From Gemmatimonadota bacterium (GTDB lineage: Bacteria > Gemmatimonadota > Gemmatimonadetes > Gemmatimonadales > GWC2-71-9): a stretch of 64,000 bases of DNA. The translations under genes were made by a program, and so were the position numbers. How positions within the stretch are numbered: position 1 is the first letter of the stretch; each line of letters opens with the position of its first letter. The stretch is from the NCBI GenBank assembly GCA_039587315.1, contig JBDHIS010000014.1, positions 678-64,677 on the forward strand, in the 5' to 3' direction. Positions 29,656 to 62,142 of this stretch are shown in pieces. The notes beneath the pieces are model-generated. The model worked only from the letters and a program-made list of their open reading frames with translations. It ran no database searches and was not told the DNA's origin.

Positions 29656-31002
<1,347 letters not shown>

Positions 31003-42825: not shown

Positions 42826-43440
42826 ATGCCCGACGGCGGCGCCACACCGAAGACCTCCCCCCACGTCCGCGAGAAGCGGCAACGCAGGCGTCAGGAGATC
42901 CTCCACGCGGCGCTACGGGCGTTCAAGGAGCGGGGATACCACGCCACGACACTCGACGACATCGCCGAGCGCATAGGCGTCCGCAAGACTGCCCTGTACC
43001 ACTACTTCCCGGACAAGGAAGCGATCCTCTACGAGTGCCACCGCGAGTCGCTGAACGAGATCGAGCGGCTCATGAAGGAGGCGCGGGAGCTGGAGACGGC
43101 CTCCGAGCAGCTCGCCCACGTGGTCCGCGAGCACGTGAGGGTGATGACCGATACTCTCGAGGGCTCCCCCCTGGCATTCGAGGTCACCGCATTCTCCCCG
43201 GAGCGGCAGAAAGAGATGATCGCCGCCCGCGACCGCTACGAGCGCGAGCTGAGGCGCATCATCGACCGCGGAATCAAGGAAGGGGAATTCCGCCGGGTTG
43301 ACTCGAAGATCGCTGTGTTCGCCGTGCTCGGAGCGATCAACTGGATCGCCAGATGGTACAGCCCGGAAGGCTCCGTCCACGCGCCGGAGCTGGGAGCGCA
43401 GTTCGCCGATCACCTCGTCGGAGGACTCACGTGCGGATGA
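42826..43440 (+). CDS. TetR/AcrR family regulator (KstR2/PaaR-like C-terminus)
   Basis: ILHAA..F.ERGYHATTLDDIA..GV.KTALYHYFPDKEAIL; GAINWIARWY. Confidence 0.93.
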   Translation: MPDGGATPKTSPHVREKRQRRRQEILHAALRAFKERGYHATTLDDIAERIGVRKTALYHYFPDKEAILYECHRESLNEIERLMKEARELETASEQLAHVVREHVRVMTDTLEGSPLAFEVTAFSPERQKEMIAARDRYERELRRIIDRGIKEGEFRRVDSKIAVFAVLGAINWIARWYSPEGSVHAPELGAQFADHLVGGLTCG

Positions 43441-43468
43441 AGAGGCTACGAAGCGGAGGGAAGGGACG

Positions 43469-44521
43469 ATGAAGGCCATCCGGTTCACTGCGGTCAAGGA
43501 GCCGCTCGAGGTTCAGGAAGTCGACATGCCCCGACCGGGCGACGACCAAGTAATAGTCCAGGTCGCCGGCTGCGGCGTGTGCCACACCGACATCGGCTTC
43601 TGGATCGACGGCGTTCCGACGAAGCAGCCCCTGCCGCTGACTCTCGGGCACGAGATCAGCGGAACGGTGGTGGAAGCGGGATCCGGCTACAAGAGCCTGG
43701 TGGGCCGGGAGGTGATCGTACCCGCCGTGATCCCGTGCGGCTCATGTGACCTGTGCTCGCAGGGGCGCGGCAACGTGTGCCGCCGGCAGATGATGCCCGG
43801 CAACGATATCGATGGAGGCTTCGCCGAATACGTGGCGGTGCCCGGAGCCGGGCTGTGCGAGGTGACCGACCGAACGGGATACGAGCTCTCCGATCTGTCG
43901 GTCGTCGCGGACGCGGTGACCACCCCGTATCAGGCCATCGTCCGCAGCGGTCTCGAGGCCGGTGACTTCGCAATCGTGATCGGGGTCGGGGGCGTAGGGA
44001 CCTACGGCGTGCAGATAGCTGCCGCCCTCGGAGCCAAGGTGGTGGCCATAGACGTGGACCAGAGCAAGCTGGATGGCGTCGCCGAGCACGGGGCGGCACT
44101 CACGGTGAACTCGGCCGAGACCGACTTCAAGAGCCTGAAGAAGCAGGTGAAGGGCGCCGCCAAGGACTGGGGCTGCACGAGCCACTCCTGGAAGATCTAC
44201 GAGTGCTCCGGACATCCCGGGGGACAGGAGACTGCGTACGGGCTACTCACGCACGCCTCCACCCTGATGGTGGTGGGGTTCACCCTCGGAAAGATCGAAG
44301 TGCGCCTCAGCAACCTCATGGCCTTCGACGCGACCGTCCAGGGCACGTGGGGGTGCAAGCCGGAGCTCTACCCCGCCGCCCTCGGGATGCTCACGGACCA
44401 GAAGATCACATTGAAACCGTTCATCGAGGCGCATCCCATGAGCCGGGCACCCGAAGTTCTGCAGCGGGTGGCCGACCACGAGATCCACAAGCGCGCGATA
44501 CTAGTGCCGGACTGGGAGTGA
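43469..44521 (+). CDS. had: 6-hydroxycyclohex-1-ene-1-carbonyl-CoA dehydrogenase (Zn-ADH family)
   Basis: GCGVCHTD, GHEISG, PAVIPCGSCDLC, ADAVTTPYQA, RLSNLMAFDA..GTWGC; adjacent to oah. Confidence 0.88.
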   Translation: MKAIRFTAVKEPLEVQEVDMPRPGDDQVIVQVAGCGVCHTDIGFWIDGVPTKQPLPLTLGHEISGTVVEAGSGYKSLVGREVIVPAVIPCGSCDLCSQGRGNVCRRQMMPGNDIDGGFAEYVAVPGAGLCEVTDRTGYELSDLSVVADAVTTPYQAIVRSGLEAGDFAIVIGVGGVGTYGVQIAAALGAKVVAIDVDQSKLDGVAEHGAALTVNSAETDFKSLKKQVKGAAKDWGCTSHSWKIYECSGHPGGQETAYGLLTHASTLMVVGFTLGKIEVRLSNLMAFDATVQGTWGCKPELYPAALGMLTDQKITLKPFIEAHPMSRAPEVLQRVADHEIHKRAILVPDWE

Positions 44522-44543
44522 GGCACGGAGGGAGGATGGAGTC

Positions 44544-45635
44544 ATGCTGAAGAGTCACACCCTCGTAGACGGTGGCGGATACGACGAGATCATCTACGAG
44601 CTCAAGCCGGTGCTGGATCCGTCAGGCAACGAGGCGAAGGGCCTGTTCAACGCCTGGATCACGCTCAATAACCCAAAGCAGTACAACAGCTACACGACGG
44701 AAGCTGTGAAGGAAGTGATTCTCGCGTTCCGTCAGGCCAGCATGGACCGCAGCGTCGTCGCAGTGGTGTTCACGGCGGTCGGGGACAAGGCGTTCTGCAC
44801 CGGCGGGAATACGAAGGAGTACGCCGAGTACTACTCCGGCAACCCGCAGGAGTACAAGCAGTACATGCGGCTGTTCAACGACATGATCGACGCCATCCTC
44901 CGCTGTGACAAGCCGGTCATCAACCGCGTCAACGGAATGCGCCTGGCCGGCGGCCAGGAAATCGGAATGGCGTGTGACTTCACGATCGCGGTGGATACCG
45001 CGCAGTTCGGTCAGGCCGGACCGAAGCACGGCTCCGCCCCCGACGGCGGCTCCACCGACTTCCTGCCGCTGTACGTCGGCTTCTCGCGGGCCATGGAGAG
45101 CGGCGTGCTGTGCGAGATGTGGAGCGCACACAAGGCGCTGTTCATAGGCCTCATCAACCAGATCGTGCCGGCGCTGAAGGTGGACGGGAATTGGATCCCC
45201 AATCCGATGGCGATCACGGATCGCTTCCTGGACGACTTCGGGAACGTCGTGTACGGCGACTTCAAGACCGGCGACGAGCGCAAGGCAGCGAAGGAGACCC
45301 TGGCCAAGGCCGAGACCGACCTGACCAAGCTCGACGAGGCCGTGGACGGGTTGTGCACCAAGATCCTGATGCTGATGCCCGACTGCGTGTCGAAGACCGT
45401 CAACGGACTGCGCAAACACAAGCAGTGGCACTGGGACAACACGAGCGTCACCAACCGCGAATGGCTGGCCCTCAACATGATGACAGAGGCCAAGGCCGGG
45501 TTCCGCGCCTTCAACGAGGGACCGAAGGGAAAGCGGGAGGTGGACTTCATCAAGCTGCGTCAGATGCTCGCCGACGGGCATCCGTGGGATGACGAGCTCC
45601 TCAGGGCCATCTCGCCCCAGTACCAGGAAGGCTGA
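44544..45635 (+). CDS. oah: 6-oxocyclohex-1-ene-1-carbonyl-CoA hydrolase (ring-opening, BamA/BzdY)
   Basis: NPKQYNSYTT, FCTGGNTKEYAEYY, GQAGPKHGSAPDGGSTDFL, WLALNMMTEA. Confidence 0.95.
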   Translation: MLKSHTLVDGGGYDEIIYELKPVLDPSGNEAKGLFNAWITLNNPKQYNSYTTEAVKEVILAFRQASMDRSVVAVVFTAVGDKAFCTGGNTKEYAEYYSGNPQEYKQYMRLFNDMIDAILRCDKPVINRVNGMRLAGGQEIGMACDFTIAVDTAQFGQAGPKHGSAPDGGSTDFLPLYVGFSRAMESGVLCEMWSAHKALFIGLINQIVPALKVDGNWIPNPMAITDRFLDDFGNVVYGDFKTGDERKAAKETLAKAETDLTKLDEAVDGLCTKILMLMPDCVSKTVNGLRKHKQWHWDNTSVTNREWLALNMMTEAKAGFRAFNEGPKGKREVDFIKLRQMLADGHPWDDELLRAISPQYQEG

Positions 45636-45644
45636 GGAACCGAC

Positions 45645-46394
45645 ATGGATCTGGGCCTCACGGGAAAGAGCGCACTCGTAACCGGCGGACGCACCGGAAT
45701 CGGCGCCGCCATCGCTGTGGCACTGGCGGGCGAGGGATGCGACGTCGCGATCGTGGATCGAGTCCACGACGAGACCGCCGACACGGTGGTCGGGAAGATC
45801 GCCGACCTGGGCCGCCGCGGGCTCGTGATACAGGCAGACGTCGCCGACCACGCGGCAGCACACGAGGCCATCGCGACCGTCGTGACGGATTTCGGGCGGC
45901 TCGACATCGTCGTGTGCAACGCCGGGATCAACTGGGACGGCGTGATCTGGAAGATGACCGAGGAGCAATGGGACTCCGTCATCACGGTCAACCTCAAGGG
46001 CTACTTCAACTACAACCAGGCTGCCGCGAACGTCTTCAAGGACCAACGGAGCGGCAAGATCGTGAACATCTCATCCATCAACGGTCTGCGCGGCAAGCAC
46101 GCGCAGACGAATTACGCTGCGTCCAAGGGCGGCGAGATCGCGCTCACGAAGTCGTTGGCACGAGAGCTGGGGAAGTTCAACGTCAACGTGAACGCCGTCG
46201 CCCCCGGAATGGTCCTGACCGAGATGGCACAGGACCTGGCACCCGAGTTCATCCACAAGGCGGCCGACGAGACCGTGTTGGGTCGCATCGCCGAGTCGCA
46301 GGACATAGCCGACGCGGTGGTATTCCTCTGCTCGGACCGAGCACGGCACATAACCGGCGAAGTCATCAAGGTCGATGGCGGCCAGTACATGTAG
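45645..46394 (+). CDS. SDR family 3-hydroxyacyl-CoA/3-oxoacyl dehydrogenase
   Basis: TGGRTGIG, NAG, S..YAASK, VDGG. Confidence 0.88.
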   Translation: MDLGLTGKSALVTGGRTGIGAAIAVALAGEGCDVAIVDRVHDETADTVVGKIADLGRRGLVIQADVADHAAAHEAIATVVTDFGRLDIVVCNAGINWDGVIWKMTEEQWDSVITVNLKGYFNYNQAAANVFKDQRSGKIVNISSINGLRGKHAQTNYAASKGGEIALTKSLARELGKFNVNVNAVAPGMVLTEMAQDLAPEFIHKAADETVLGRIAESQDIADAVVFLCSDRARHITGEVIKVDGGQYM

Positions 46395-46400
46395 CGGCGC

Positions 46401-47555
46401 ATGACACGAGTCGGGATCGTCGGGATCGGACACACGGCGTTCGGCCGCCGCAGCGACGCCACGGTGCAGGAGCTGGCGTTCGAGGCGTTCCGGGAGGCCG
46501 TGCTGGATGCGGGCATCGAGCGCGATGACATCGACGCGTCCGTCATCGGCGCCGTGCCCGAGTACCACAAGCAGCGCTCCCTGGCCGGCGTGGTGCAGGA
46601 GTACCTGGGCCTGGCTCCCAAACCGACGTGGCTGACGGAGGTCGCGTGTGCCTCCGGGAGCGCCGCGATGCGAACCGCCTGGCTCGCCATCAAGGCCGGC
46701 GTGCACGACGTGGTCGCTGTAATCGGTTGCCAGAAGATGACCGAGCTCTCCACGCCGGAGATTCTGGCGCTGATGGGCCGCGTGGGTGAGGTGCAGTGGG
46801 AGTCGGGCTTCGGGACGACGTTCCCGGCGTACTACGCGATGTTCGCCAAGCGACACATGCACGAGTTCGGCACCACGCACGAGCAGCTGCTCGAGGTGGC
46901 GGTGAAGAACCACCACTACGGGGCCCTCAACCCCAAGGCGCTGTTCCGCAAGGAGATCACGATGGAGAAGGCGGCGGCGTCGGAGGACGTGGCTACGCCG
47001 CTCCAGGTCTACGACTGCTGCGCCAACGCCGACGGCGCCGCGTGCGTGATTCTGGCGAGCGAGGAGCGCGCCCGCGAGATCTCCGACAAGCCGGTCTGGC
47101 TCGCCGGGATGGGCTGCGCCACGGCCAGCATGTCGGTGCTGCGGCGCCCCAACCTCGTCGGTTTGCCGAGCGCCGAGCAGGCGGCCCGAGAGGCCTATGC
47201 GATGGCCGGGATCGAGCCGCGAGATGTGAAGGTGGCGGACGTGCACGACTGTTTCACCGTTGCCGAGATAATGGCGTACGAGGATCTGGGGTTCTGCGCC
47301 AAGGGAGACGGCGGACCGTTCGTCGCGGACCGGCAAACGTACATCGGGGGCGACGTAGCCGTGAACGTGGACGGAGGCCTCAAGGCCAAGGGCCATCCGA
47401 TCGGCGCCACCGGGACGTCCATGACACACGAGATCGTGCTGCAGCTGCGCGGAGAAGCGGGTGAGCGGCAGGTCCCGGACGCAGACGTGGGGCTCACTCA
47501 CAACGTGGGGGGGATCGGGCAGTACTGCTTCGTCCAGGTCCTCACACGGGAGTAG
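46401..47555 (+). CDS. SCP2-type (HDCF) thiolase-family protein
   Basis: ACASG, HDCF, GHPIGATG, HNVGG; followed by a DUF35 partner. Confidence 0.9.
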   Translation: MTRVGIVGIGHTAFGRRSDATVQELAFEAFREAVLDAGIERDDIDASVIGAVPEYHKQRSLAGVVQEYLGLAPKPTWLTEVACASGSAAMRTAWLAIKAGVHDVVAVIGCQKMTELSTPEILALMGRVGEVQWESGFGTTFPAYYAMFAKRHMHEFGTTHEQLLEVAVKNHHYGALNPKALFRKEITMEKAAASEDVATPLQVYDCCANADGAACVILASEERAREISDKPVWLAGMGCATASMSVLRRPNLVGLPSAEQAAREAYAMAGIEPRDVKVADVHDCFTVAEIMAYEDLGFCAKGDGGPFVADRQTYIGGDVAVNVDGGLKAKGHPIGATGTSMTHEIVLQLRGEAGERQVPDADVGLTHNVGGIGQYCFVQVLTRE

Positions 47556-47559
47556 AGCG

Positions 47560-48000
47560 ATGTTCAAGTGGTTCGGCCGCGTCAACTACGCACCCTTCAC
47601 CAAGGTGGGGGACTTCGCGCAGCACCTGAAGGACGGCCGCTTGATGGCGAGCCGCTGCAAGCAGTGCGGCGCGACCTCCTTTCCGCCGAGGGCCGACTGC
47701 GAAGCGTGCCTGAGCGGCGAGTTCGAGTTCACGGAGCTGAGTGGGCGCGGGCGGCTGCACACGTACACCAAGATCGTCGCCGCGCCGACCGGCTTCGAGG
47801 ACGTGGCGCCGTACACCGTAGGCGTGGTCGACTTGGAAGAGGGCGGTCGCGCCGTGGCCTGGTTCGGCGAGAGCATCCCGGAAGAGAGCATCGAGATCGA
47901 CATGGAGCTGCAGGTCGTCCCCCGCATCTTCGAGGAGCTGGAGGAGATCCGGGTCTTCTACAGTCTGGAGCGGCCGGGCACGACCTGGGCGAAGACGTAA
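47560..48000 (+). CDS. DUF35 Zn-ribbon/OB-fold protein (thiolase partner)
   Basis: [34 protein letters not shown]. Confidence 0.9.
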
Positions 48001-48058
48001 CACCCCCGACGAGATCAGCCGACTGCGGTCGTGGAGTGAAGAGAGGGAGCGGAGTGGT

Positions 48059-49255
48059 ATGAGCACAAAGGCGACTATGGATGGCGGGATTGCGACTCAG
48101 GTGTTCCCCGAGTGGCGCGGTCAGCCGCTGGACGAGATCCTGTATCACTGCAGGGAGCTCGCCGAAGACGAGGATTTCCCCACCGTGCGCCGCTGGCGTG
48201 AGGCAGGCGGAAGGGTGGTGGGCCACTTCCAGGTGTACTTCCCCGAGGAGATCGCCCATGCGGCGGGCATGCTCCCGTTCAAGCTGCGGGGCGCCTCCGT
48301 CGAGGCGACCCAGGCCGACTCCCGCTTCGGGTCGTACCTCTGCTCCATCCTGAAGACGTCACTCGAGCTCGCTCTCAGCCGTCGCATCGAGCTCGAGATG
48401 TTCGTAACGCACCCGATCTGTGACGCGGCGCGCAACCTGGCCGCGGTGTGGGGTCGCAACTTCCCCTATCCCTGCCAGATCCTCTATCTGCCGCAGAACG
48501 CGAACTCGCCACACGCCGCCGAGTACCTGCGCGGTGAGTACGATCGCGTGAAGCGGGCAATCGAGGGAATCGCCGGCCGGGAAGTGACCGAGAGTGACCT
48601 GCAACGCTCCCTCGGGGTGTTCAACGAGAACCGGGCGTTGCTGAGGGAGCTGTATGTCATCAAGCGCGAGGCGCCGTGGCTCATCTCCGCCGAGGATGCA
48701 TACGTGCTGGTGGCAATCGGAGGCATGATCCCGCGGGAGGAGCACAACGAGCTGCTGCGCGCGGTGCTTCCCCTCATACGCGAGCGCGGCGCCAAGCGCC
48801 AGGATCGCATTCGCGTGGTGTTCGAAGGCGGATTCTGCGAGCAGCCGCCGCTGGATCTCATCCGGGCGATCGGCCGTTCGTGCTACGTCGTGGACGACGA
48901 CCTCTTTATCGGTTTGCGCTGGATCCTGGAGGACGTGCCGCTCGACGGCGACCCGCTGCTCGCACTCGCCACGGCCTATCTCGAGAGCTCCTCGTACAGC
49001 CCGGTGCAGCATGACCTTCGCAAGCCCAAGGAGGAGATGCTGCTCGAGCGCATCGCTGCGTCCGATGCCCAGGCCGCGATAATCACGGCAGCCAAGATGT
49101 GCGAGCCGGGTCTGGAGGAGCAGGTCGCCTACACTCGAGCGCTCGACGAGAAGAACGTGCCCTACTTCGTGAGCGAGTTCGAGGAGAAAATGACCAGCTT
49201 CGATCATCTGGAGATCCAGCTGGAGACATTCATCGAGAACCTCCTGTTCGAGTGA
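48059..49255 (+). CDS. bcrC: class I benzoyl-CoA reductase subunit C (BcrC/BadD/HgdB family)
   Basis: [41 protein letters not shown]; colinear with BcrC as I recall it; had/oah context. Confidence 0.85.
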
Positions 49256-49263
49256 GTGATACG

Positions 49264-50562
49264 ATGGCAGACCATGCAGTCGATACGATCGTGGGGCGCG
49301 GCAACAAGGACGGCGCCGACCTGTTCCGGCAGTGGTTCGGGGAGCTGACCGAGGCGGCAGCGGAGGATCGCCGCGCGGCCTACGTCTTCGTGATGGGCAG
49401 CTTTTGTGAGCTGCTGCAGGTGTTCGACCTCCCGATCGTCTTTCCGGAGATCAACTCACTCCAGACGGCGGTCCGCCGAGTGGCGCACGAGTACCTCAAC
49501 GAAGCCGAGGACTACGGCTACTCGCCCGACATCTGCGGCTACGTGAAGGCCGACGTCGCTACGCAACTGCGCGGCGGCGAGCTGCCGATGGGCCGCATCC
49601 CCAAGCCCGCCATCGCCGTCTATACGAACGCTTGCAACACCTACATCAAGTGGGCGGAGATCTGGGAGCGGATGTACGGCGTCCCGACATTCGTGCTGGA
49701 CGTGCCCGGCTCACGCGCCGCCGGCGCGCAGACCTGGCCCGGTGACCCGGACTTCGAGAACGACCGTCGCTACGTCGCCGCGCAGATCAAGGAGCTGATC
49801 CCGGTGCTCGAGAAGGTCACCGGTATCGGATTCGACATAGACAAGCTGCGCGAGACCATGGGGCACGCTAACTCCATGAACCGCTCGTGGAAGCGCGTGT
49901 TGGAGCTGAATCGGAGCAAGCCGTCGCTGTTCAACGCACTGTCCGATGGCACGATCTACCTGGGAGTGGCGAACGGCTTCCGGGGCACCTCAGCGGGCGC
50001 GGCCTATTTCGAGGACCTCGTCGAGGAGATGGAGCACAAGGCTGCAGAGGGAATCGGGACGCTGACCGAGGAGCTGTACCGTCTCCTCTTCGTGGGCGTG
50101 CCGTGCTATCCCATCTTCCGCCGCTTCACGGAGTTGTTCACAGAGCTGGGTGGCACGTTCGTCAACTCCACCTACCTGTGGTTTGCCTCCGGCGGGTCCA
50201 ACGTCGGATTCCAGTACGACCTCGACGATCCTGTCGAGAGCCTGGCCGAAGGCGTGTTGATCAGCGTGCGCGACGCGATGGACAGCATGTTCTTCCAGAC
50301 GCAGATCCTGTCCGACATGATCGACGACTTCGGGGCCCACGGCGTCGTGTATCACCCCATCAAGAGCTGCCGCACCGTTTCCACCGGCCTCGCGGACAAC
50401 CGCCGGGACCTGATGGCGCAGCGTGACATCCCGAGCCTCTTCATCGAGTCCGACATGATGGACAAGCGGGTCGTGTCCGAAGCGCAGCTCAAGAACCGGG
50501 TGGACGCGTTCTTCGAAGGACTGGCCACACGCCGGCACCAGGCCGCGATCCAGCAGCCGTAA
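49264..50562 (+). CDS. bcrB: class I benzoyl-CoA reductase subunit B
   Basis: [45 protein letters not shown]. Confidence 0.85.
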
Positions 50563-50582
50563 CGGAACGGGGAAGGAAGCTC

Positions 50583-51398
50583 ATGGCTTACGCAGCGGGC
50601 GTGGACGTCGGATCCACCCAAACCAAGGCAGTCATCATCGACGAGCAGAAGCGGATCGTGAGCCGCGCGCTGACCGACACCGGCGCCAACGTGATCCGCG
50701 CGGCCGAGAGCGCATTCGCCGAGGCCCTCGGAAACGGTGATCTCCGCGAGGAAGAAGTCGAGTACGTCGTCGGCACCGGCTACGGCCGCTATAAAGTGAC
50801 GTTCGGCAACACGCAGGTGACCGAGATCAGCTGCCACGGGCGGGGCGCAGTCCATATGTTCCCCGAGACGCGCACGGTCGTGGACATGGGCGGCCAGGAT
50901 ACGAAGGCGATCCGCGTGTCCGCCACGGGTGAGATCGTCGACTTCTGCATGAACGACAAATGCGCGGCCGGAACGGGCAGGTTCCTGGGCGCCGCGTCCG
51001 CCGCGTTGGAGATCCCCCTCGACAAGCTGGGTCCGACGGCACTCGACGGCGAGCGGCCCGTGAAGATCAGCACGACGTGCACCGTGTTCGCGGAGTCGGA
51101 GGTGCTGTCCTGGCTGGGCAAGGGCAAGAAGATCGAGGACATCCTGCTCGGCGTACACCAGTCGATAGCGGCCCGCTCGGCGGGGCTGCTCCGCCGAGTC
51201 GGCGTCGAGGACGAAGTCACGTTCACGGGGGGCGTGGCCAAGAACACGGCTATGATCTCGACACTCAACGAGCGGCTGAACCTGGAAGTCAACGTGAGCG
51301 ACGACTCCCACTACATGGGGGCGCTGGGCGCCGCGCTCTTCGCGCTGGACCACATCCTGGCCAGCCGGGCGCCGGCGAAAGCGAGGCAGGACGCATGA
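50583..51398 (+). CDS. benzoyl-CoA reductase ATP-dependent activase subunit (ASKHA, BcrA/D family)
   Basis: [41 protein letters not shown]. Confidence 0.9.
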
Positions 51399-52222: not shown

Positions 52223-52237
52223 CCGCACCGCGCAACG

Positions 52238-52552: not shown

Positions 52553-52566
52553 ACCGCGGCCCCGCC

Positions 52567-53646: not shown

Positions 53647-53846
53647 CCGACCTCCCTCCGGGTTCCATCTCGGCCCCGGAAGCTCCGGGGCTCAACATCC
53701 AATACTGGAGGGCGGGCGCCCGCGGCGCGAGTGCCCCCTCCTGACAACGGATCCGGGGCGGCGCGTTGAAGGTAGCCAGCCGAGAGGCCATCTTATTGAG
53801 AGGGAAAGGGGAGCCGAATCAGCAGTCCGGCAAGGAGATGACGACG

Positions 53847-54551
53847 ATGCGATGCACCAGATGTGGCCACGAGTCAGCCGACACTGACAAGTTCTGCGCC
53901 GAATGCGGCTTGTTTCTGCGCGATGCCTACATAGATCACCGCCTGCTCCATGCCCTGGTCCAGGAGACCGAGGGCAGCCACCGGGACGCCCGCCGCGAGC
54001 TGGAGCGCCTGGTGGAGGCCGAACCCGACAACGTGCTGGCAAATCACCTGCTGGGGCACGTCTACTATCACCAGGGGACGCTGGACCAGGCCATTGCGCG
54101 CTACGAGCGTGCGCTGGAGCTGGCTCCGAACTTCGTGGAGTGCTCATACGACCTCGGGGTCGCCTACTACCATCGCGGCAACATGCCGGGAGCCATCCGC
54201 GCCTACCGGCGCTGCCTCGAGATAGACCCCAACTACAACGCAGCGCACTACCGGCTGGCAATCGCCCTGTTCCACGCCGGCGAGCTAGACCTGGCGCTGG
54301 AGCATTTCGAGAAGTGCACGGCGCTCACGCCCGAGTACCTGATGGCCCGCTACCACATCGGCGTCATCTACGAGCGGATGGAAGACTTCGACGCGGCGGC
54401 CAGGGAGTTTCAACGCAGCGCCGACGACGTAGTCGAAGAGGTGAGCAGCCTCTACCACCTGGCGCAGATATACAAATCCAGGGGGGATGAGACCGCAGCG
54501 AACAAGCTGCTGGAGCGCGCCCGGCAGTTCGGCCGCGCACAGGTCTCCTGA
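53847..54551 (+). CDS. zinc-ribbon plus TPR protein
   Basis: CTRC..FCAEC N-terminus; about 5 TPR repeats; AAGGAG RBS. Confidence 0.85.
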   Translation: MRCTRCGHESADTDKFCAECGLFLRDAYIDHRLLHALVQETEGSHRDARRELERLVEAEPDNVLANHLLGHVYYHQGTLDQAIARYERALELAPNFVECSYDLGVAYYHRGNMPGAIRAYRRCLEIDPNYNAAHYRLAIALFHAGELDLALEHFEKCTALTPEYLMARYHIGVIYERMEDFDAAAREFQRSADDVVEEVSSLYHLAQIYKSRGDETAANKLLERARQFGRAQVS

Positions 54552-54559
54552 GGCCCGGC

Positions 54560-55813
54560 ATGGCGACCGCTCCCACCGAAGACCGCCTCATCCACGATTG
54601 GGCCGCTGCGGACGAGCGCCAGGAGCCCAAGCGTCTGGCAATGCTAGACGACGAGACGCTGCGGGACGGGCTGCAGAGCCCGTCGGTGACCGATCCGCCC
54701 ACGGACGTGAAGGTCAAGATCCTCCACCTCATGAACGACCTCGGGATCGAGACCGCCGACATCGGACTTCCCGGAGCTGGACCCAGACAGCGGGACGCGG
54801 TCGAGCGCCTCTGCCGCGAGATCGCGGATAGCCGACTGAGCATCAATGCCAACTGCGCCGCACGCACGATGATCGTGGACATTCAGCCCATCGCCGACGT
54901 GGTGCAGAAGACCGGCGTGCCGATCGAGGCGTGTGTGTTCATCGGCAGCAGTCCCATCCGGCAGTACGCCGAGGAGTGGGACCTGGAGCACATCCTGCGG
55001 CACACGAAGGAGGCGGTGGGCTTCGCCGTTCGTGAGGGTCTCGACGTCATGTACGTCACAGAGGACACGATCCGAGCGAGGCCGGAGGACCTACGCATCC
55101 TGCTGAGCGCGGGTGTCGAAGCCGGCGCCAAACGACTGTGCCTGTGTGACACGGTCGGGGCGGCCGTACCGCAAGGCGTGCGCAACCTGGTGGCGTGGGT
55201 CGGGCAGTTGTTGGAGGATCTGGGCGTTGCAGGCGACGTCGGCATAGACTGGCACGGCCACCGGGACCGGGGGCTGGACGTCGCCAACACGCTGGCTGCG
55301 ATCGAGGCCGGCGCCACGCGCGTGCACGGAACGGCGCTCGGGGTGGGCGAGCGGGTCGGCAACACGCCGATGGAGCAGTTGCTGGTGAACCTCAAGCTGT
55401 TCGGATGGCGCGACGACGATCTGTCGTGCCTGCCCGAGTACGTGCAGACCGTTTCACAGGCCGTCGGCGTTCCCATCCCCGTGAACACTCCGATCGTCGG
55501 GAGGGACGCTTTCCGCACGGCGACGGGCGTCCACGCCGCCGCCGTCATCAAGGCCAAGCGCAAGGGCCAGGCGTGGCTGGCCGACCGGGTTTATTCCGGA
55601 GTGCCGGCCAGTTGGATCGGACGCGAGCAGGAGATCGAGGTGGGTCACATGTCGGGTGGCTCGAACGTGTTGTTCTTCCTGCGCGCGCGCGGCCTGCCGG
55701 ACGGCCCCGAGGTAGTCGAGGCCGTGATGGCCGCCGCGAAGAAGTCCGAGCGCCTCCTCACGGAGGAGGAGATCCGAGAGGCGGTGGAATCAGTCGCCGG
55801 AAAGGACGTGTGA
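54560..55813 (+). CDS. LeuA/homocitrate synthase family (DRE-TIM) 2-oxoacid:acetyl-CoA condensing enzyme, no regulatory domain
   Basis: DETLRDGLQ, LCDTVG, HGHRDRG, GVGERVGN; only 417 aa. Confidence 0.88.
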   Translation: MATAPTEDRLIHDWAAADERQEPKRLAMLDDETLRDGLQSPSVTDPPTDVKVKILHLMNDLGIETADIGLPGAGPRQRDAVERLCREIADSRLSINANCAARTMIVDIQPIADVVQKTGVPIEACVFIGSSPIRQYAEEWDLEHILRHTKEAVGFAVREGLDVMYVTEDTIRARPEDLRILLSAGVEAGAKRLCLCDTVGAAVPQGVRNLVAWVGQLLEDLGVAGDVGIDWHGHRDRGLDVANTLAAIEAGATRVHGTALGVGERVGNTPMEQLLVNLKLFGWRDDDLSCLPEYVQTVSQAVGVPIPVNTPIVGRDAFRTATGVHAAAVIKAKRKGQAWLADRVYSGVPASWIGREQEIEVGHMSGGSNVLFFLRARGLPDGPEVVEAVMAAAKKSERLLTEEEIREAVESVAGKDV

Positions 55814-55816
55814 GGT

Positions 55817-56485
55817 ACGGGACAGAGATACCTCGGACCTACGCGGTTCATCGATAGCGACCACCCCGAGGTAGTCGACTTCGCGAAGGGTGTAATCGGC
55901 CGCCAGACGGGTGAGGTGGACAAGGCCGTAGCGCTCTACTATGCCGTGCGCGACGGCATCCGCTACGATCCCTACTACATAGACCTCCGGCCCGGCGCGA
56001 TGCGAGCAAGCGCCGTGCTGAAACGCGGTTCCGGCTTCTGTGTAGCCAAGGCAGTCGTGCTGGCGGCCGCAGCCCGGACACACGGAATCGCCAGCCGGCT
56101 CGGCTTCGCCGACGTGCGGAACCACCTCACGACCGAGCGGATGCGCCGCGCGATGCGCACCGACCTATTCGTGTTTCACGGATATGCCGAACTGCTGGTG
56201 GAGGGTCGTTGGGTGAAGGCTACCCCGGCCTTCAACATATCGCTGTGCGAGCGGTTCGACGTGACACCACTCGAGTTCGACGGACGGCGGGATTCCCTGT
56301 TTCAGCAGTACGACCGAGAGGGCAATCGCCATATGGAGTACGTGCGGGACCGCGGGCACTTTTCGGATCTGCCCCTCGACGAGATGCTGGAGGCTTTCGA
56401 GGAGCACTATCCCTGGCTGATGGCAGGGGGCGTCTACAACATCAGGGGTAGTATGGACGCCGATCTGGAGGAGATGAGACGGTGA
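55817..56485 (+). CDS. transglutaminase-like protein with non-canonical 5' end
   Basis: YLGPTRFIDSDHP, YYAVRDGIRYDPY, GFCVAKA (Cys), DVRNHL, HGY, WVKATPAFN. First standard in-frame start is GTG 55916; the start given here (ACG) is a guess. Confidence 0.75.
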   Translation, partial: TGQRYLGPTRFIDSDHPEVVDFAKGVIGRQTGEVDKAVALYYAVRDGIRYDPYYIDLRPGAMRASAVLKRGSGFCVAKAVVLAAAARTHGIASRLGFADVRNHLTTERMRRAMRTDLFVFHGYAELLVEGRWVKATPAFNISLCERFDVTPLEFDGRRDSLFQQYDREGNRHMEYVRDRGHFSDLPLDEMLEAFEEHYPWLMAGGVYNIRGSMDADLEEMRR

Positions 56486-58215
56486 GCAGGCTCATGTCCG
56501 GCAACGACGCGGTGGCCCAGGGCGCCTGGGAGGCCGGAGTCTCGTTCGCCGCGGGGTACCCGGGTACGCCGAGCACGGAGGTGCTGGAGCGCCTGGCCAC
56601 CTACGCGGAGATCGATGCGCATTGGTCGACCAACGAGAAGGTCGCCTTCGAGGAGGGCATGGGAGCCGCGCTCGGCGGACTCCGCACGATGGTGACGATG
56701 AAGCACGTGGGCCTCAACGTGGCCGCCGATCCCTTCATGGTGTTTCCCTACTCCGGCACCAACGCCGGTTTCGTGGTGCTGGTGGCCGACGACCCCGGCA
56801 TGTACTCGTCGCAGAACGAGCAGGACAGTCGCTACTTTGCCAGGCTGGCCAAGGTGCCGATGCTGGAACCGGCGGACGCGGCTCAGGCCAGGGAGCTGAC
56901 CGGTATCGCATTCGATCTGAGCGAACAGTTCCTGACACCGGTAATGCTGCGCACGACGACGCGGCTGGCACATACGCGCGGCGTCGTGGACCCGGGCGAC
57001 CGCACTGAGGCCCCACGCAAGCCGTTCTCACGCAAGGTCAGCCAGTACGCGATTCCCGTATACGCGCGGTTCCGCCGGCCCGAACTGGAGGAGAAGCTCC
57101 AGGGGATGTGCCAGTTCGCCGAAGAGTTCGAGGGCAACGTGATCGAAGAGGGTGACTCGCGGATCGGAGTGGTCACCCACGGCATGCCATATCAGTACGT
57201 GAAGGAGGTGTGCCCCGACGCCACGGTGTTCAAACTGGGGATGATCTACCCGCTGCCCGAGAAACGGCTTCGAGAGTTCTGCGCCCGCTTCGACACCGTG
57301 TTCGTGGTGGAGGAGAGCGAGGGCTTCATCCAGCAGGAGATGGCCGGCTTCGGCATCAGCAACCTCGAGGGCAAGGAGCGTTTCACCAACATCGGCGAGC
57401 TGTCCGTAGACCTGGTCGCGGCCGGGATCTCCGGCAAGTCAGTGCCGCCGGACTTCAGCAGCGAGACAGTCATCCTGCCGCGGCCGCCCGTGCTGTGTGC
57501 AGGTTGCCCGCACCGCGGGGTGTTCAACACACTCAAGAAGCTCGGTGTCCTCGTGACCGGCGACATCGGCTGCTACACTCTGGGCTGCCTGCCGCCGTAC
57601 GAGGCGATCCATACGACCTTCTGCATGGGTGCCAGCATAGGCAACGCTACCGGATTCAGCAGGGCCGGCGAGGAGCGGGTCGCTGCGGTGATCGGTGACT
57701 CCACCTTCCTGCATGGAGGCCTTCCCGGTCTGGTGAGCGCGGTATACAACCGCGTCCCCACTACGACGATCCTGCTGGACAACGGCACTACCGGAATGAC
57801 GGGCCAACAGGAGCATCCGGGGACTGGGCACGACCTCAAGGGAGAGGACGCCCCGTCGGTGGACTACGAGGCGCTGATCCGGTCGGTCGGTGTGGAGCAT
57901 GTAACCGTGGTGGACCCGTGGAACCTGGAGGAAACCGAGCAGGCGATTACGGCCGGCCTCGACCACCCGGGCCCGGCCGTGATCATCGCGCGGCGGAGCT
58001 GCCAGTTGCTTCCCGTGGAGAAGGCGGCTGCGCGCACTCCCTACCGGGTGGAGTTGGAAGAGTGCGTGCTGTGCGAGGAGTGCATGGAGTCGGGATGCCC
58101 TGCTCTCGTGTGGAAGGAGGACGGACCCCACGTCCGAGAGTGGGAGTGCGTGGGCTGCGCCCTGTGCGCCCAGCTCTGCCCGACGGACGCCATCGGTGCG
58201 GTGGAGGTGGCCTGA
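56482..58215 (+). CDS. iorA: indolepyruvate (aryl-pyruvate):ferredoxin oxidoreductase alpha subunit
   Basis: GYPGTPSTE, NEKVA, MKHVGLNVAADP, SSQNEQDSR, LCAGCPHR, GDIGCY, GDSTFLHGG; C-terminal 2x[4Fe-4S] motifs. Confidence 0.95.
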   Translation: MSRLMSGNDAVAQGAWEAGVSFAAGYPGTPSTEVLERLATYAEIDAHWSTNEKVAFEEGMGAALGGLRTMVTMKHVGLNVAADPFMVFPYSGTNAGFVVLVADDPGMYSSQNEQDSRYFARLAKVPMLEPADAAQARELTGIAFDLSEQFLTPVMLRTTTRLAHTRGVVDPGDRTEAPRKPFSRKVSQYAIPVYARFRRPELEEKLQGMCQFAEEFEGNVIEEGDSRIGVVTHGMPYQYVKEVCPDATVFKLGMIYPLPEKRLREFCARFDTVFVVEESEGFIQQEMAGFGISNLEGKERFTNIGELSVDLVAAGISGKSVPPDFSSETVILPRPPVLCAGCPHRGVFNTLKKLGVLVTGDIGCYTLGCLPPYEAIHTTFCMGASIGNATGFSRAGEERVAAVIGDSTFLHGGLPGLVSAVYNRVPTTTILLDNGTTGMTGQQEHPGTGHDLKGEDAPSVDYEALIRSVGVEHVTVVDPWNLEETEQAITAGLDHPGPAVIIARRSCQLLPVEKAAARTPYRVELEECVLCEECMESGCPALVWKEDGPHVREWECVGCALCAQLCPTDAIGAVEVA

Positions 58216-58788
58216 GTGGCGACGACCAACGTCCTGGTGGCCGGTGTCGGCGGACAGGGAGCGATCCTCGCCAGCGAGTTGCTCGCTCTGGCCGCCCTGG
58301 GCGCCGGTTACGACGTGAAGCAGGGGGAGTTCCACGGTGTGGCGCAGCGGGGCGGGGCCGTCTTCAGCCACGTGCGGTTCGGGGATCGAGTTCACTCTCC
58401 CGTGACCCGGCGCGGTGAGGTGGACTACCTGCTTGCGCTGGAGAAGCTGGAGGCGCTGCGGTACGCGCACTTCGTGAAGCCCGGAGGCACGATCATCGTC
58501 AATGAGATGGAGGTAGAGCCGATCCGAGTGGCCGACGAGCGCCCCTACCCCGACGACGCGATCGGCTTCCTCGAGGGAAAGGGCTTCAACGTGGTAGCCA
58601 TGAAGGCGACCGAGGAGGCGATCGACCTGGGCAGCCATCGCGCTGCCAACGTCGTGCTGCTGGGTGCGCTGGCAGCTTCGCTCGACATCCCGCAAGACAC
58701 TTGGGATGAGACCCTCGGAAAGCGCATCCCGGGACCATTGCTAGACCTCAACCGGAAGGCGTTCGCCGCCGGCAGGGACTCACTGTAA
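58216..58788 (+). CDS. iorB: indolepyruvate:ferredoxin oxidoreductase beta subunit
   Basis: GVGGQG, HGVAQRGG.V.SHVRFG, LEALR, NVVLLGA, N.KAF..G. Confidence 0.93.
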   Translation: MATTNVLVAGVGGQGAILASELLALAALGAGYDVKQGEFHGVAQRGGAVFSHVRFGDRVHSPVTRRGEVDYLLALEKLEALRYAHFVKPGGTIIVNEMEVEPIRVADERPYPDDAIGFLEGKGFNVVAMKATEEAIDLGSHRAANVVLLGALAASLDIPQDTWDETLGKRIPGPLLDLNRKAFAAGRDSL

Positions 58789-58791
58789 GCA

Positions 58792-58815: not shown

Positions 58816-58841
58816 CTCACTGCTCAACATCGCCTTCGAAT

Positions 58842-60932
58842 TCAGACAGCCATCGTCTTTGTGTACTCCGTTCCGACCATTCCTCCACGGCACTCGGCCG
58901 ACAGCATGAACTCCGCCGAGTGCTTCGCCTGGGTGGCGAGAGCGTCCGCCAGGCTCACGTGACAAGCGGCGTCTATGCACTGCACGATCGCCTTCCTCGC
59001 GGCTTCGCTCTCGGGCGAGTCCGCAGGGGGTAGACCGGCGATCTCGCGCGGCACGCCGTCCAACGCCCCGCTCTCGACGCTCCTCGCCTTCAAGCCGTGG
59101 TCGGCGCCGGTCGCCACCTTCCAGGCGGTCTGTAGCGCCTCCTCCAGCGGTCCCGCATAGTCGATGAGCCAGCCGACTGCATCGCCGGCCCTGACCGGTC
59201 TCCCACCCAACAGCAACTGCAGCAGCTTGGGCCAGTCCTCGGCCCGCGCTTTGCGGAACGGCCAGTGGCATCCCTCCATGCCGGGTACGACGGGGAGCGT
59301 CACCTCGGGCATCCCGAACTGCGCGCCGTCCACCGCCATCAGGTAGTGGCAGTGCAGCATCAGCTCCAGCATGCCACCCAGGCAACGCTTTCCGTTCACG
59401 AACCCGACCGACACCTCGAAGTCGTCGGCGAACCGTCTGGCGGTGCGGGACCAGTCACTCGCAATGCGCGATCCGGCCTCGGCGGCCTCGAGCGCGGGGA
59501 AGAACTCGCTGGTGTCGGCTCCCACCATCTGCGTCGAGAGGTGGAAGTCACCGGTCAGTATCACCCGCTCGATCCGCTCTGCCTTGAGCCAGTCCAACGC
59601 CCGGTTGAGCTCCTGGTCCACGTCGCCGTTGTAGCTCTCCCTGCTCAACGTCACCACACCGACTTCTCCGTTGTGCTCGGCGTTGACGTAGAGCTGTTGC
59701 CACTCCGGCGAATCCATGTTGTTGAACGCACCCGGGTACCAAGCGCTCTGCGCTGCCTCCGGTTGCAGCCGATGATACGCCCGGACGGTCTTCGCCACGG
59801 TGTCGGGACCCAGGTCGCGCACGACGGCCAGGATGCCGCTGCGGAACTGCGCGCACAATTCGCCGATGGCGTTGAGATGCGTCAGGTGGCCGCGCTTCTC
59901 GTGGAGCATGAGGCTCGTCATCTGGAACATCGGCCCCAGAATCCACGCCCTGAAATCCTCGTCGGCTGACTCGTCCAGCGACCAGTTCACGAGCGGGCGG
60001 AAGTGGTTGGGCGGATACCAGGTCTGGCCGGTGTCCTTCCGTTCGGTCAGCGCGGCGGTGGGCTTGAACACGTCGCCGTACATCTCCGCCAGGTGGTGCA
60101 GGCACGACCAGGTGAGGAAGTTGGCGCCTTTCGCCCCAATCGCGTCGTGTGCGCGGAACGGGTTGGGCCCCATGAGCTTCCGCACGAACTTGTCGATCTT
60201 CCAGAACGGCATGTTGCTGGCGTCATGATAGCGCAGACCGGCCAGGGTCACGCCGCAGAAAAGCACGTCGAGCACGAACGACCAGTTGTCGCTCACCGGC
60301 ACCGGTATGAGCCCCAGCGCCCAGAGGAGCTGCGTTATGGCCGACGGCTCGGGCTCGACTATCTCCCAGATCTTGTTGATCTCGTGGGGGAATGCCGGAT
60401 GCGCGACGCCTACTCCCAACTCGGAGCTCGGGAAGCCGGACGTCACCGAGCGGATCTCGATGTCCGGGAACGACCCGCGGAACAGCTCATAATGAGCCCG
60501 CTTGATCTCCAGGATCTCCGGAATCGCCTCGAGCAGGAACCGCGGTTTGAGCTGCTGGAGCTCGCTCGGAAGGCGAGTGCCGTCGTAGCTCAGCCGCACG
60601 ATGTTCTGCATGATGGCCGCGGCGCCCTCGGGGCCGAATGCCTGAACCAGTCCGGGGTACTGCTTTCCGATTCCGTCGGGGGCACCCGGGAAGTCCAGGG
60701 CGACCACTCGCACGTCGTAGGGCTGCAGCCTCGAGCCGAGCTGCATCGTCTTCCCGGCGCCCACTATTCCGTTGGCGCCCGAGATGACCATCGAGCCCCG
60801 TTTCTTTTGTTTGCCGAAGACCTCGTCCACGAGGTCGGCGGCGGCGGCGGGCATTTGCCCGCGCTCGAAGATGTCGATGACGTTTCCCAGCCCCAGCGTC
60901 TGGAGGGTCGTTTCCCGCATCACCTTGGTCAT
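58842..60932 (-). CDS. divergent 3-hydroxyacyl-CoA dehydrogenase / enoyl-CoA hydratase fusion (HCDH N-terminal, crotonase C-terminal)
   Basis: GANGIVG Rossmann motif, EAIPEILEIK; C-terminal GAD, CLGGMLE, FGMPEV..PG with both crotonase glutamates. Confidence 0.8.
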   Translation of the reverse strand: MTKVMRETTLQTLGLGNVIDIFERGQMPAAAADLVDEVFGKQKKRGSMVISGANGIVGAGKTMQLGSRLQPYDVRVVALDFPGAPDGIGKQYPGLVQAFGPEGAAAIMQNIVRLSYDGTRLPSELQQLKPRFLLEAIPEILEIKRAHYELFRGSFPDIEIRSVTSGFPSSELGVGVAHPAFPHEINKIWEIVEPEPSAITQLLWALGLIPVPVSDNWSFVLDVLFCGVTLAGLRYHDASNMPFWKIDKFVRKLMGPNPFRAHDAIGAKGANFLTWSCLHHLAEMYGDVFKPTAALTERKDTGQTWYPPNHFRPLVNWSLDESADEDFRAWILGPMFQMTSLMLHEKRGHLTHLNAIGELCAQFRSGILAVVRDLGPDTVAKTVRAYHRLQPEAAQSAWYPGAFNNMDSPEWQQLYVNAEHNGEVGVVTLSRESYNGDVDQELNRALDWLKAERIERVILTGDFHLSTQMVGADTSEFFPALEAAEAGSRIASDWSRTARRFADDFEVSVGFVNGKRCLGGMLELMLHCHYLMAVDGAQFGMPEVTLPVVPGMEGCHWPFRKARAEDWPKLLQLLLGGRPVRAGDAVGWLIDYAGPLEEALQTAWKVATGADHGLKARSVESGALDGVPREIAGLPPADSPESEAARKAIVQCIDAACHVSLADALATQAKHSAEFMLSAECRGGMVGTEYTKTMAV

Positions 60933-60945
60933 CGTCCCACCCTCC

Positions 60946-62142
60946 CTAGGAGACCTTCAGAATGGCCGAGATACCCACGTCGCCCGCGGCGCAGCCGAAG
61001 ACGAGCACGTGGCCGCCACCCAAGTCCACCGCCTCTTCCAGGGCCTCGATCACCACGCGGGTGAGAGTCGGACCCTGTGGGTGGCCCCACACGAGAGGGG
61101 AACCAGTGTTGTTCATGCAGTTCCAGTCGTAATCCAGCATCCGCGCGAAGATCGCGTCGTTCACCGCGAATGGGTTGTGGTTCTTGACCACCTTCATGTC
61201 CGACATCGTGAGGCCCGTGCGCTCGAGCAGCTTCTGCACCGCCATCGCGGGCGCCTCGGGCATGAGGCTCGGATGGGTGCGCACCTCGGCCTTGGCGACG
61301 AACCGAATGTCCACCTCGGGCTGGGGGCTCAGCTCCCTGGCCTTCTCGGGGGTCGCGACGAGGAGGCAGGCCATCCCGTCGGATGCATGGGTCTGCGTCC
61401 CACCCGTAACGCAAGTGTCGAGCTCATTCATCGCGCTCAAGCTGCCCAGTGTCAGCTCCCGCACGCCGACGTCGTCGTCGATGCGGCCCAACGTGCGGCC
61501 CTGGAGGTTGAGCACCTCGAGGGGGACGAGCGTGCGGTCCAGGAAGCCCGACCGCTTCGAGTCGAAGTACTGCTGGTGGCGACGGAACGCGATCTCGTCG
61601 GTCTCCTTGCGGCCGATCTTGTACTTGCGGGCCGCGATGCCGGCCGTCGTGATCATCGCGTTGCCGGTGGCCGGATCGAAGCCGAAGTTGTCCCACACGT
61701 CTGCGAGCGGCACGGTGCGCTGGTGCGCACGGCGCTCGGGAAACACGCCCACGGGCGAGTCACTGGTCCGGTCGAACGTCAGCACCCCCACCACGTCGTT
61801 GGCTCCCGAGTCGACCTCGGCACCCGCCAGGAGAGTGGCCTGCAGCCCGGTGGCGCAGGCCTGCTCCATGTGGTAGCCCGGAATGCGCTCGCCGAGGCAG
61901 CTCGCCACGAGCGGCGCGTTCCAGAACTTCCAGTGCCACGGAACGGTGGACCCGATGATGAGGTAGTCCAGTTCGGTCTTCGGCACCTTTCTGAGCCCGA
62001 GGATCCGATTCATGGACTCGCCCGCGAACTGGCCGATGTTCACCTCGGCGAGCGCGGAAGTCTGCCACGCCGGGAAATAGCTGCTGCCCCAGGTGCCGTA
62101 GGGAATCCTCGCCCTGGAGTACATGCCGTTGTTCTGACTCAT
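60946..62142 (-). CDS. thiolase family protein (atypical HNPF motif)
   Basis: QACATG, DDVGVR, SDG, NHNPFAVN, WGHPQGPT, GCAAG. Confidence 0.85.
   Translation of the reverse strand: MSQNNGMYSRARIPYGTWGSSYFPAWQTSALAEVNIGQFAGESMNRILGLRKVPKTELDYLIIGSTVPWHWKFWNAPLVASCLGERIPGYHMEQACATGLQATLLAGAEVDSGANDVVGVLTFDRTSDSPVGVFPERRAHQRTVPLADVWDNFGFDPATGNAMITTAGIAARKYKIGRKETDEIAFRRHQQYFDSKRSGFLDRTLVPLEVLNLQGRTLGRIDDDVGVRELTLGSLSAMNELDTCVTGGTQTHASDGMACLLVATPEKARELSPQPEVDIRFVAKAEVRTHPSLMPEAPAMAVQKLLERTGLTMSDMKVVKNHNPFAVNDAIFARMLDYDWNCMNNTGSPLVWGHPQGPTLTRVVIEALEEAVDLGGGHVLVFGCAAGDVGISAILKVS

Follow-up and report, generated by a model that had tools for sequence, protein, structure and literature searches.

A stretch of 64,000 nucleotides from contig JBDHIS010000014.1 (GC ~65%; hereafter the window), belonging to an uncultured marine-sediment Gemmatimonadota bacterium with a genome that is 97.7% complete, carries an operon of eleven genes at 42826-52552. 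In our preferred reading, which we hold at a probability of about 0.7, the products of this operon are an ATP-dependent aryl-CoA reductase, of class I and the MBR type, and enzymes for opening the ring and shortening the product, the linking hydratase has been lost, and the leu and ior genes found further downstream are mere neighbours. To our knowledge, work on class I benzoyl-CoA reductases has been limited to one archaeon and a small number of denitrifying Proteobacteria. Should the clade described here be active, uncultured Gemmatimonadota, Acidobacteriota, and their kin may account for a large share of the ATP-dependent reduction of aromatic rings that takes place in soils and marine sediments, and the enzyme used would be MBR, the least-studied type.

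The operon and its reductase

The reductase is encoded by four adjacent genes at 48059-52222, two from PF06050 (HGD-D subunits) and two different ones from PF01869 (BcrAD_BadFG ATPases). When the window proteins were compared with the sequences of solved structures (Mbd, Bzd, and Had), each of the four subunits found its best full-length match in one subunit of the 3-methylbenzoyl-CoA reductase MbdNOQP (PDB 9g87, 9gai, 9gal, 9gba). The gamma subunit (48059-49255, plus strand) matched MbdN (9g87_B) with 561.7 bits over residues 12-398, the catalytic beta subunit (49264-50562, plus strand) matched MbdO (9g87_A) with 514.2 bits over residues 8-428, and the ATPase subunits alpha (50583-51398, plus strand) and delta (51395-52222, plus strand) matched MbdQ (9gai_D) and MbdP (9gai_C) with 414 and 318.5 bits, respectively. 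The next best solved family reached 107-226 bits. Because of this one-to-one correspondence we class the reductase, by sequence likeness, as MBR-type, one of the three types of class I benzoyl-CoA reductase (BCR, MBR, and BZD) distinguished in PMC11971306. An initial annotation of the window, made from its sequence, had claimed a class I cluster for dearomatisation, which the four reductase subunits and the had and oah families described below confirm; it had also claimed a variant module, and for the reductase itself the idea of an unclassified variant has to be given up, as the subunits match MbdNOQP from end to end with 318-562 bits and belong to the known MBR type.

The likeness to MbdNOQP extends to the short ATPase subunits, of ~270 aa in both systems, and to cysteines that the two systems have in common in their gamma and beta subunits; the identity, judged by eye from the gamma and beta alignments, is ~55-62%. 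In the alignment of the beta subunit Cys91, Cys124, and Cys369 coincide, as read by eye, with the cluster cysteines Cys95, Cys128, and Cys380 of BzdO (PMC11971306), and the position of BzdO His131 is, by the same reading, taken by Tyr in the window and by Phe in MbdO. The gamma-beta pair is the only HGD-D pair that was found in the genome.

The complete operon is a tight run of genes on the plus strand, all of them intact and closely packed, with intergenic gaps of -4 to 58 nt. The genes of the window were taken from a listing of open reading frames (ORFs), with inspection of start codons and with Pfam and NCBIfam family scans of 49 ORFs; outside these scans lie the ORFs at 3-521, 2007-2198, 8322-8558, and 15377-15637 and the stretch 26704-28055. 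The first gene is a tetR gene (42826-43440; PF00440 and PF17932), followed by had for 6-hydroxycyclohex-1-ene-1-carbonyl-CoA dehydrogenase (43469-44521; TIGR03201, 476 bits against a cut-off of 338.65) and oah for the ring-opening 6-oxocyclohex-1-ene-1-carbonyl-CoA hydrolase (44544-45635; TIGR03200, 577.8 bits against 464.45). Both of the latter exceed the equivalog cut-offs of the central benzoyl-CoA pathway in its Thauera/Geobacter form. An SDR gene (45645-46394; PF13561/PF00106), a gene for an SCP2-type thiolase (46401-47555; NF004720, 488 bits against 420), and a gene for its DUF35 partner with a zinc ribbon and an OB fold (47560-48000; PF12172 and PF01796) lead up to the reductase genes; the frame of the DUF35 gene differs from that of the ORF at 47568-48062. 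As its gene stands after oah and before the thiolase gene, the SDR is presumably a 3-hydroxypimelyl-CoA dehydrogenase, and the thiolase is a putative 3-oxopimelyl-CoA thiolase. The last gene (52238-52552) encodes an acidic protein of 104 aa with one CxxC motif and no family match. Every gene named in the initial annotation of 42826-62142 was found, and in the same order.

In the proposed mechanism the gamma-beta pair would reduce benzoyl-CoA or a close analogue with electrons activated by the alpha-delta ATPase pair. The dienoyl-CoA product would then be hydrated by a housekeeping crotonase or by Oah, Had would oxidise the 6-hydroxy-enoyl-CoA, Oah would hydrolyse the ring to 3-hydroxypimelyl-CoA, and the SDR followed by the thiolase and its DUF35 partner would produce glutaryl-CoA and acetyl-CoA. 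The TetR protein would repress the operon until an acyl-CoA inducer is present. Among solved structures, 3vpr and 3dcf come closest to it, and a scan for promoters and terminators gave sites that were no commoner than in shuffled sequence.

The operon departs from the studied proteobacterial clusters in its phylum, in belonging to a genus without genes for ligase, ferredoxin, and dch, in its non-orthologous TetR, and in the CxxC gene. The mbd genes come from a denitrifying betaproteobacterium; their cluster is presumably headed by a TetR-type regulator as well, but the TetR of the window is no orthologue of MbdR (4uds, merely 41 bits), and the operon is without the genes for a ligase, a ferredoxin, a hydratase, and a 2-oxoglutarate oxidoreductase that we take to be present in the mbd cluster. 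With the bcrCBAD-fdx and dch/had/oah genes of Thauera aromatica the operon shares the subunit order gamma-beta-alpha-delta, the had and oah equivalogs, and a small gene right after delta. That slot in Thauera is, we assume, occupied by fdx, while the small gene of the window encodes a two-cysteine protein and not a 2[4Fe-4S] ferredoxin; dch is missing, and the models for BcrC, BcrB, BcrA, and BcrD are missed by a wide margin (TIGR02263, 256 bits against 421; TIGR02260, 212 against 487; TIGR02259, 221 against 578; TIGR02261, 132 against 313). The BZD enzyme of Aromatoleum/Azoarcus (bzdNOPQ; PDB 8s02) belongs to the same superfamily and has the same catalytic cluster cysteines (PMC11971306), but the window subunits reach just 87-106 bits against BzdN and BzdO and stay below the cut-offs for BzdN, BzdO, and BzdQ (TIGR03190, 101 bits against 454; TIGR03191, 97 against 449; TIGR03192, 187 against 380).

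Relatives of the reductase and the loss of dch

At least 540 of 599 candidate stretches, one genome per species, encode a relative of the reductase, and the best 80 of these (loci L014-L093, 75-95% identical to the window in the beta subunit) were analyzed for synteny by tblastn with the proteins of the window and of locus L033. Most of the 80 loci are labelled Gemmatimonadota and the others Eisenbacteria, Acidobacteriota, or Chloroflexota, apart from a few with other labels. The two closest loci (95% and 90% identity of the beta subunit) bear the Gemmatimonadota label, in agreement with the Gemmatimonadota-like host proposed in the initial annotation. That annotation had further regarded the phylum as one without an association with characterised ring reduction, a statement that is weakened by two metagenome papers (PMC11704145; bioRxiv 10.1101/2025.11.25.690425), where class I benzoyl-CoA reductase genes are already mentioned in metagenome-assembled genomes (MAGs) of Gemmatimonadota, Acidobacteriota, and Eisenbacteria. 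Our literature searches found no paper on the clade as MBR-type, on its fifth gene, or on its dch-less form. The relatives are named “2-hydroxyacyl-CoA dehydratase family protein” or “hypothetical” by NCBI and “benzoyl-CoA reductase subunit B” by JGI; the equivalog models of NCBIfam miss the MBR type altogether, and its members go under “dehydratase” at NCBI. A search of a plasmid collection gave no MBR-type relative, the best match being 28% identical.

Beta subunits from MAGs with different phylum labels (Gemmatimonadota, Acidobacteriota, Eisenbacteria, and Chloroflexota) share 75-80% identity, which could reflect either unusually slow evolution or transfer between phyla. Mis-binning of some contigs is possible, for instance in L057, which is labelled Akkermansiaceae.

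All four reductase subunits are encoded in 66 of the 80 loci, the remainder being cut by contig ends. Two arrangements could be recognised among the 52 loci whose upstream sequence reaches 4.5 kb or more. The first (type 1; 25 loci) has the tetR-had-oah-SDR order of the window, in 11 of the 25 with the thiolase and DUF35 genes as well, whereas the second (type 2; 14 loci) carries divergent oah-like, dch-like, and had-like genes that all remain under the equivalog cut-offs, as in L033 (6307-8815 and 13204-14295) with 215, 187, and 241 bits, respectively. The remaining 13 loci conform to neither. It may be that the type 2 clusters encode a pathway for a substituted ring. A tetR gene heads 33 of the 39 clusters of types 1 and 2. 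Four loci (L016, L022, L024, and L035) contain a genuine BZD-type reductase in the same cluster (BzdN, 508 bits against 454; BzdO, 693 against 449; BzdQ, 430 against 380), accompanied by a ferredoxin of 93 aa and a BzdV-like oxidoreductase of 843 aa. In these loci the BZD-type set, which is absent from the window, separates the dch-like gene from the genes of the MBR type (e.g. L022:768-8550).

It is clear from the same loci that the window lacks a gene which most relatives possess. In 47 of the 70 loci where 900 nt or more of sequence precede gamma, its direct upstream neighbour is a dch-like crotonase gene; where this gene was scanned, in L033 and L022, its best NCBIfam match was dch, with 187-193 bits against a cut-off of 292.5. 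The DUF35 gene takes this position in the window and in four of the 70 loci (L015, L055, L031, and L043), and also in L014, where only 776 nt of upstream sequence are available, and another or unassigned gene does so in 19. That the initial annotation saw no stand-alone dch gene in the window agrees with the 49 scanned ORFs, and the search of the genome was likewise without dch, the best match to TIGR03189, a housekeeping crotonase, having 145 bits against 292.5. A metagenome contig of 391 nt (run X2, possibly the source sample) spans the dch-less junction between DUF35 and the reductase with 0 differences. Run X20, which we guess to be RNA and which may contain DNA, has short contigs that match had, DUF35, and delta exactly; no inference was drawn from them.

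For the distribution within the phylum we used a sample of 401 genomes from 147 genera. The beta subunit is encoded in 65 of these genomes, among them the four that represent the window's genus (g1), and in 39 of the genera. In 54 of the 65 carriers the reductase contig also bears a dch-like gene, as read by hand from the coordinates. It is missing in the four genomes of g1, in three of the four genomes of a second genus (g27), in G017, and in G267; its absence from the contig in G272 and G091 looks like the result of assembly breaks. In a FastTree phylogeny of the concatenated gamma, beta, and alpha subunits, with 69 rows after 12 loci with incomplete subunits had been dropped, the dch-less loci form two clades, and the sister group of either one carries dch (supports 0.90, 0.93, and 1.0), and dch has therefore been lost twice. 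Comparisons inside the dch-less clade gave dN/dS values of 0.05-0.27 at dS of 0.5-1.2 for each gene of the operon, and this purifying selection tells us that the operon is not decaying. It raises the question of why had, oah, and the reductase are under strong selection when the hydratase linking them has been deleted.

With dch deleted in the window's genus, the hydration must be the work of Oah or of a housekeeping crotonase. No orthologue of the cluster hydratase was found in four dch-less genomes, where the best matches were 38-41% identical. In the window's genome the best match is the crotonase at C40:16054-16974, which was considered as a dedicated replacement for dch. It has orthologues of 70-80% identity in the dch-less G001 and G004 and also in the dch-bearing G006 and G007 (the best match in the dch-bearing G008 is 39% identical), and since two of the three dch-bearing genomes checked possess it, this crotonase is a housekeeping enzyme and was ruled out as a dedicated replacement.

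The small CxxC protein

The gene at the end of the operon follows delta directly in 63 of the 65 loci with room for it, and is absent in L059 and L077. In the phylum sample its product is encoded in 61 of the 65 genomes with the beta subunit and in one of the 336 without it, related genomes not being independent of each other in these counts. The pattern of co-occurrence marks the CxxC protein as an accessory that goes specifically with the reductases of this clade. In its sequence G42, W43, R45, R46, Y61, G65, C82, C85, Y97, T98, and R99 are invariant, and a profile search gave 1584 homologues, the best 120 of which are without a Pfam domain and, where named, are all called “hypothetical protein”. 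The searches of Pfam, NCBIfam, and PDB gave no match, and the clusters obtained from the ESM Atlas were all named “hypothetical protein”. An AlphaFold2 model (pLDDT 79) predicts a small alpha/beta domain in which a helix starts with the CxxC motif; Foldseek found no match to it at E <= 0.001, and the best VIA hits, at Z 5.5, were designed mini-proteins.

What such a protein contributes to a Birch-type reductase is a question raised by these data. We would regard it as an attractive, if rather improbable, idea that a widespread uncultured clade (Gemmatimonadota, Acidobacteriota, Eisenbacteria, and Chloroflexota) reduces aromatic rings with an MBR-type enzyme of five components, in which the CxxC protein is a fifth subunit or a new electron-donor adaptor in place of ferredoxin, and that the two Gemmatimonadota genera without a dedicated dienoyl-CoA hydratase use Oah or a generalist crotonase instead. 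If true, this would amount to a form of the benzoyl-CoA pathway that is independent of ligase, ferredoxin, and Dch.

Substrate supply, downstream genes and alternative readings

Downstream of the operon, leuB (52567-53646, minus strand; NF002898, 416.6 bits against a cut-off of 393) converges on the operon end. It is followed by a second plus-strand unit at 53766-58788, in which family scans identified genes for a tetratricopeptide repeat (TPR) protein (53766-54551), a LeuA-like synthase of the HMGL family (54560-55813), and a transglutaminase-like protein (55916-56485), followed by iorA (56482-58215; TIGR03336, 641.1 bits against 650.9) and iorB (58216-58788; NF005322, 214.1 bits against 237). 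The ior genes are just below these cut-offs and have the Pfam domains. On the minus strand a gene for a divergent HCDH-ECH-like protein of 696 aa (58842-60932; ECH_1, E 5.9e-6; 3HCDH, E 0.065) and a thiolase gene (60946-62142; PF00108/PF02803) converge on the second unit from the other side, presumably as a beta-oxidation pair; of the convergent HCDH-ECH and thiolase pair in the initial annotation the thiolase and the strand stand, while the ECH_1 and 3HCDH matches lend the HCDH-ECH identity weak support.

The initial annotation had included iorAB and the leu genes in the reductase module, which we do not uphold. The opposite strand of leuB divides the region into separate units, and among the 42 loci that extend 6.5 kb or more beyond the delta gene the LeuA-like gene was found in 15, iorA in 9, and leuB in 6, all of them labelled Gemmatimonadota. 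Synteny in related MAGs, which the annotation proposed to check, is conserved for the core of the reductase operon, and for the ior and leu linkage in a subset of Gemmatimonadota only. The LeuA-like gene is the sole HMGL-family gene that tblastn found in the genome, and a leuB paralogue on contig C19 adjoins a gene of the aconitase family. A housekeeping role of leuB and the LeuA-like gene is the simpler reading, and the leu and ior genes are probably neighbours for amino-acid biosynthesis and peptide catabolism in separate transcription units. It is possible that the indolepyruvate-type oxidoreductase (IOR) serves as a source of reductant or thioester.

A number of observations weigh against the preferred reading. 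As described above, every NCBIfam benzoyl-CoA reductase model remains below its cut-off for the window subunits, and no dch gene was found in a nearly complete genome. The Oah of T. aromatica hydrates a fluorinated dienoyl-CoA, and its conversion of the plain dienoyl-CoA is negligible (PMC5742626). Neither a family III CoA-transferase nor a phenylacetate-CoA ligase was found in the genome, and the search for a benzoate-CoA ligase gave a best match to TIGR02262 of 199 bits against 375, which looks like a generic fatty-acid ligase. Benzoate-CoA ligase exceeds the cut-off in 35 of the 65 carrier genomes of the phylum and in none of the four genomes of either dch-losing genus. Six-frame scans of the genome with regular-expression motifs found no small [4Fe-4S] ferredoxin, [2Fe-2S] ferredoxins and flavodoxins lying outside the search and the genome being 97.7% complete; a homologue of the BzdM-like ferredoxin of the relatives was not found either. 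The absence of a ligase and a free ferredoxin from the window, as stated in the initial annotation, thus agrees with the 49 scanned ORFs and extends to the genome by the searches made. Without a ligase, CoA-transferase, or ferredoxin the supply of substrate and the electron donor are unexplained. The genome does encode five alpha subunits of 2-oxoacid oxidoreductases, and some low-potential electron acceptor must therefore exist. The last point on this side is the BZD-type reductase next to the MBR-type set in four relatives.

The missing thioester route lends some appeal to an integrated module, in which IOR and the LeuA/LeuB-family enzymes make an aryl-CoA from aromatic amino acids and feed it to the reductase, with IOR supplying the reducing power: in a genome without benzoate-CoA ligase or family III CoA-transferase the thioesters must arise otherwise, and iorAB lies 3.9 kb downstream of the operon. 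The nine loci with iorA after the cluster point the same way, as does L057, where iorAB genes unlike those of the window (48% and 42% identity) stand upstream of tetR as a second arrangement, and we take a 2-oxoacid:ferredoxin oxidoreductase to be encoded with the reductase genes in Thauera and Azoarcus. We nevertheless consider this module rather unlikely. Linkage in a minority of Gemmatimonadota loci is what inherited gene order would produce, leuB on the opposite strand splits the region, leuB passes the cut-off for isopropylmalate dehydrogenase, and the LeuA-like gene is the only one of its family found in the genome. From established biochemistry, the product of IOR is arylacetyl-CoA and not benzoyl-CoA. 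The feed of aryl-CoA from aromatic amino acids put forward in the initial annotation is weakened at the same point, as no route from arylacetyl-CoA to benzoyl-CoA was identified; a search for PadBCD-type enzymes gave eight Mo-bisPGD enzymes in the genome, which were assigned to no function.

The four loci with a bona fide BZD-type enzyme bear more directly on the substrate, since the presence of both enzymes in one cluster suggests that they are not redundant and that the MBR-type enzyme may prefer another substrate. The reductase could then be specialised on a substituted or other aryl-CoA (methyl-, halo-, or hydroxy-benzoyl-CoA, or another cyclic dienoyl or aryl thioester) rather than on benzoyl-CoA. 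Its closest characterised relative is named after 3-methylbenzoyl-CoA, the type 2 clusters combine the reductase with divergent dch-like, had-like, and oah-like genes, and His131 of BzdO is replaced by an aromatic residue both in the window and in MbdO. Against this, the had and oah genes of the window pass cut-offs that were built on the unsubstituted pathway, the reductase is the only one of the HGD-D family in the genome, and the MBR enzyme of Thauera chlorobenzoica reportedly also reduces benzoyl-CoA (Tiedt et al. 2018). We see this specialisation as a serious possibility, though one with the odds against it. That the operon is a non-functional remnant after the loss of dch, or has been put to unrelated use, would account for the failure to find dch, ligase, and ferredoxin genes, and for the lack of a benzoate-CoA ligase above the cut-off (0 of 4 genomes each) in the two genera that have lost dch (g1 in four of four genomes, g27 in three of four). 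It appears very improbable in view of the eleven intact and tightly spaced genes, the low dN/dS values, and a dch-less state that has arisen twice and is shared by the four genomes sampled from the genus. Least credible of all, in our view, is a 2-hydroxyacyl-CoA dehydratase with its activator, serving amino-acid fermentation in a peptide scavenger. The superfamily, the HGD-D fold, and the BcrAD_BadFG ATPase are indeed shared with HadBC and HadI (PDB 3o3m and 4eht), the relatives carry the NCBI name of such a dehydratase, and peptidases and HypD are encoded in the window. Against it, the catalytic pair matches the 2-hydroxyisocaproyl-CoA dehydratase with only 107 (HadB) and 130 bits (HadC) compared to 514-562 bits for MbdO and MbdN, and two distinct ATPase genes stand in one operon with had and oah where HadI is a single activator gene.

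Returning to the substrate supply of the MBR-type reductase, a possible feeder was found in the same genome at C25:57963-61034 (L100:7964-11035), a two-gene enzyme of the xanthine dehydrogenase family with an alpha subunit (C25:58611-60845) that is closest to 4-hydroxybenzoyl-CoA reductase, at 846 bits against a cut-off of 995. Such sub-threshold matches occur in 188 of the 401 genomes of the phylum (a tally that includes the unpublished G105, G165, and G190), most of them without the reductase; the enzyme is thus found across the phylum, and the candidate was set aside. A search for glutaryl-CoA dehydrogenase gave six acyl-CoA dehydrogenase matches; the four that were scanned (on C40, C57, C16, and C64, leaving C36 and C2) are below the specific cut-off. 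On the minus strand of the window, 28056-31017 encodes a protein of the histidine ammonia-lyase subfamily (536 bits against 524), which by the models used is neither a phenylalanine nor a tyrosine ammonia-lyase, and an NADP-isocitrate dehydrogenase (571 against 567).

Other genes of the window concern the general physiology of the host. Directly upstream of the operon, two tandem DPP IV / S9 peptidases are encoded on the minus strand (37865-42689), which fits a peptide-scavenging lifestyle. A glycyl radical enzyme above the HypD cut-off (1246.6 bits against 1100) and an adjacent radical-SAM activase are encoded at 23415-26703, also on the minus strand; HypD, the trans-4-hydroxy-L-proline dehydratase, marks anaerobic catabolism of peptides and collagen. 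Finally, a minus-strand gene at 2267-3886 encodes a protein of 539 aa with weak matches to B12-binding and radical-SAM domains (E about 1e-4).

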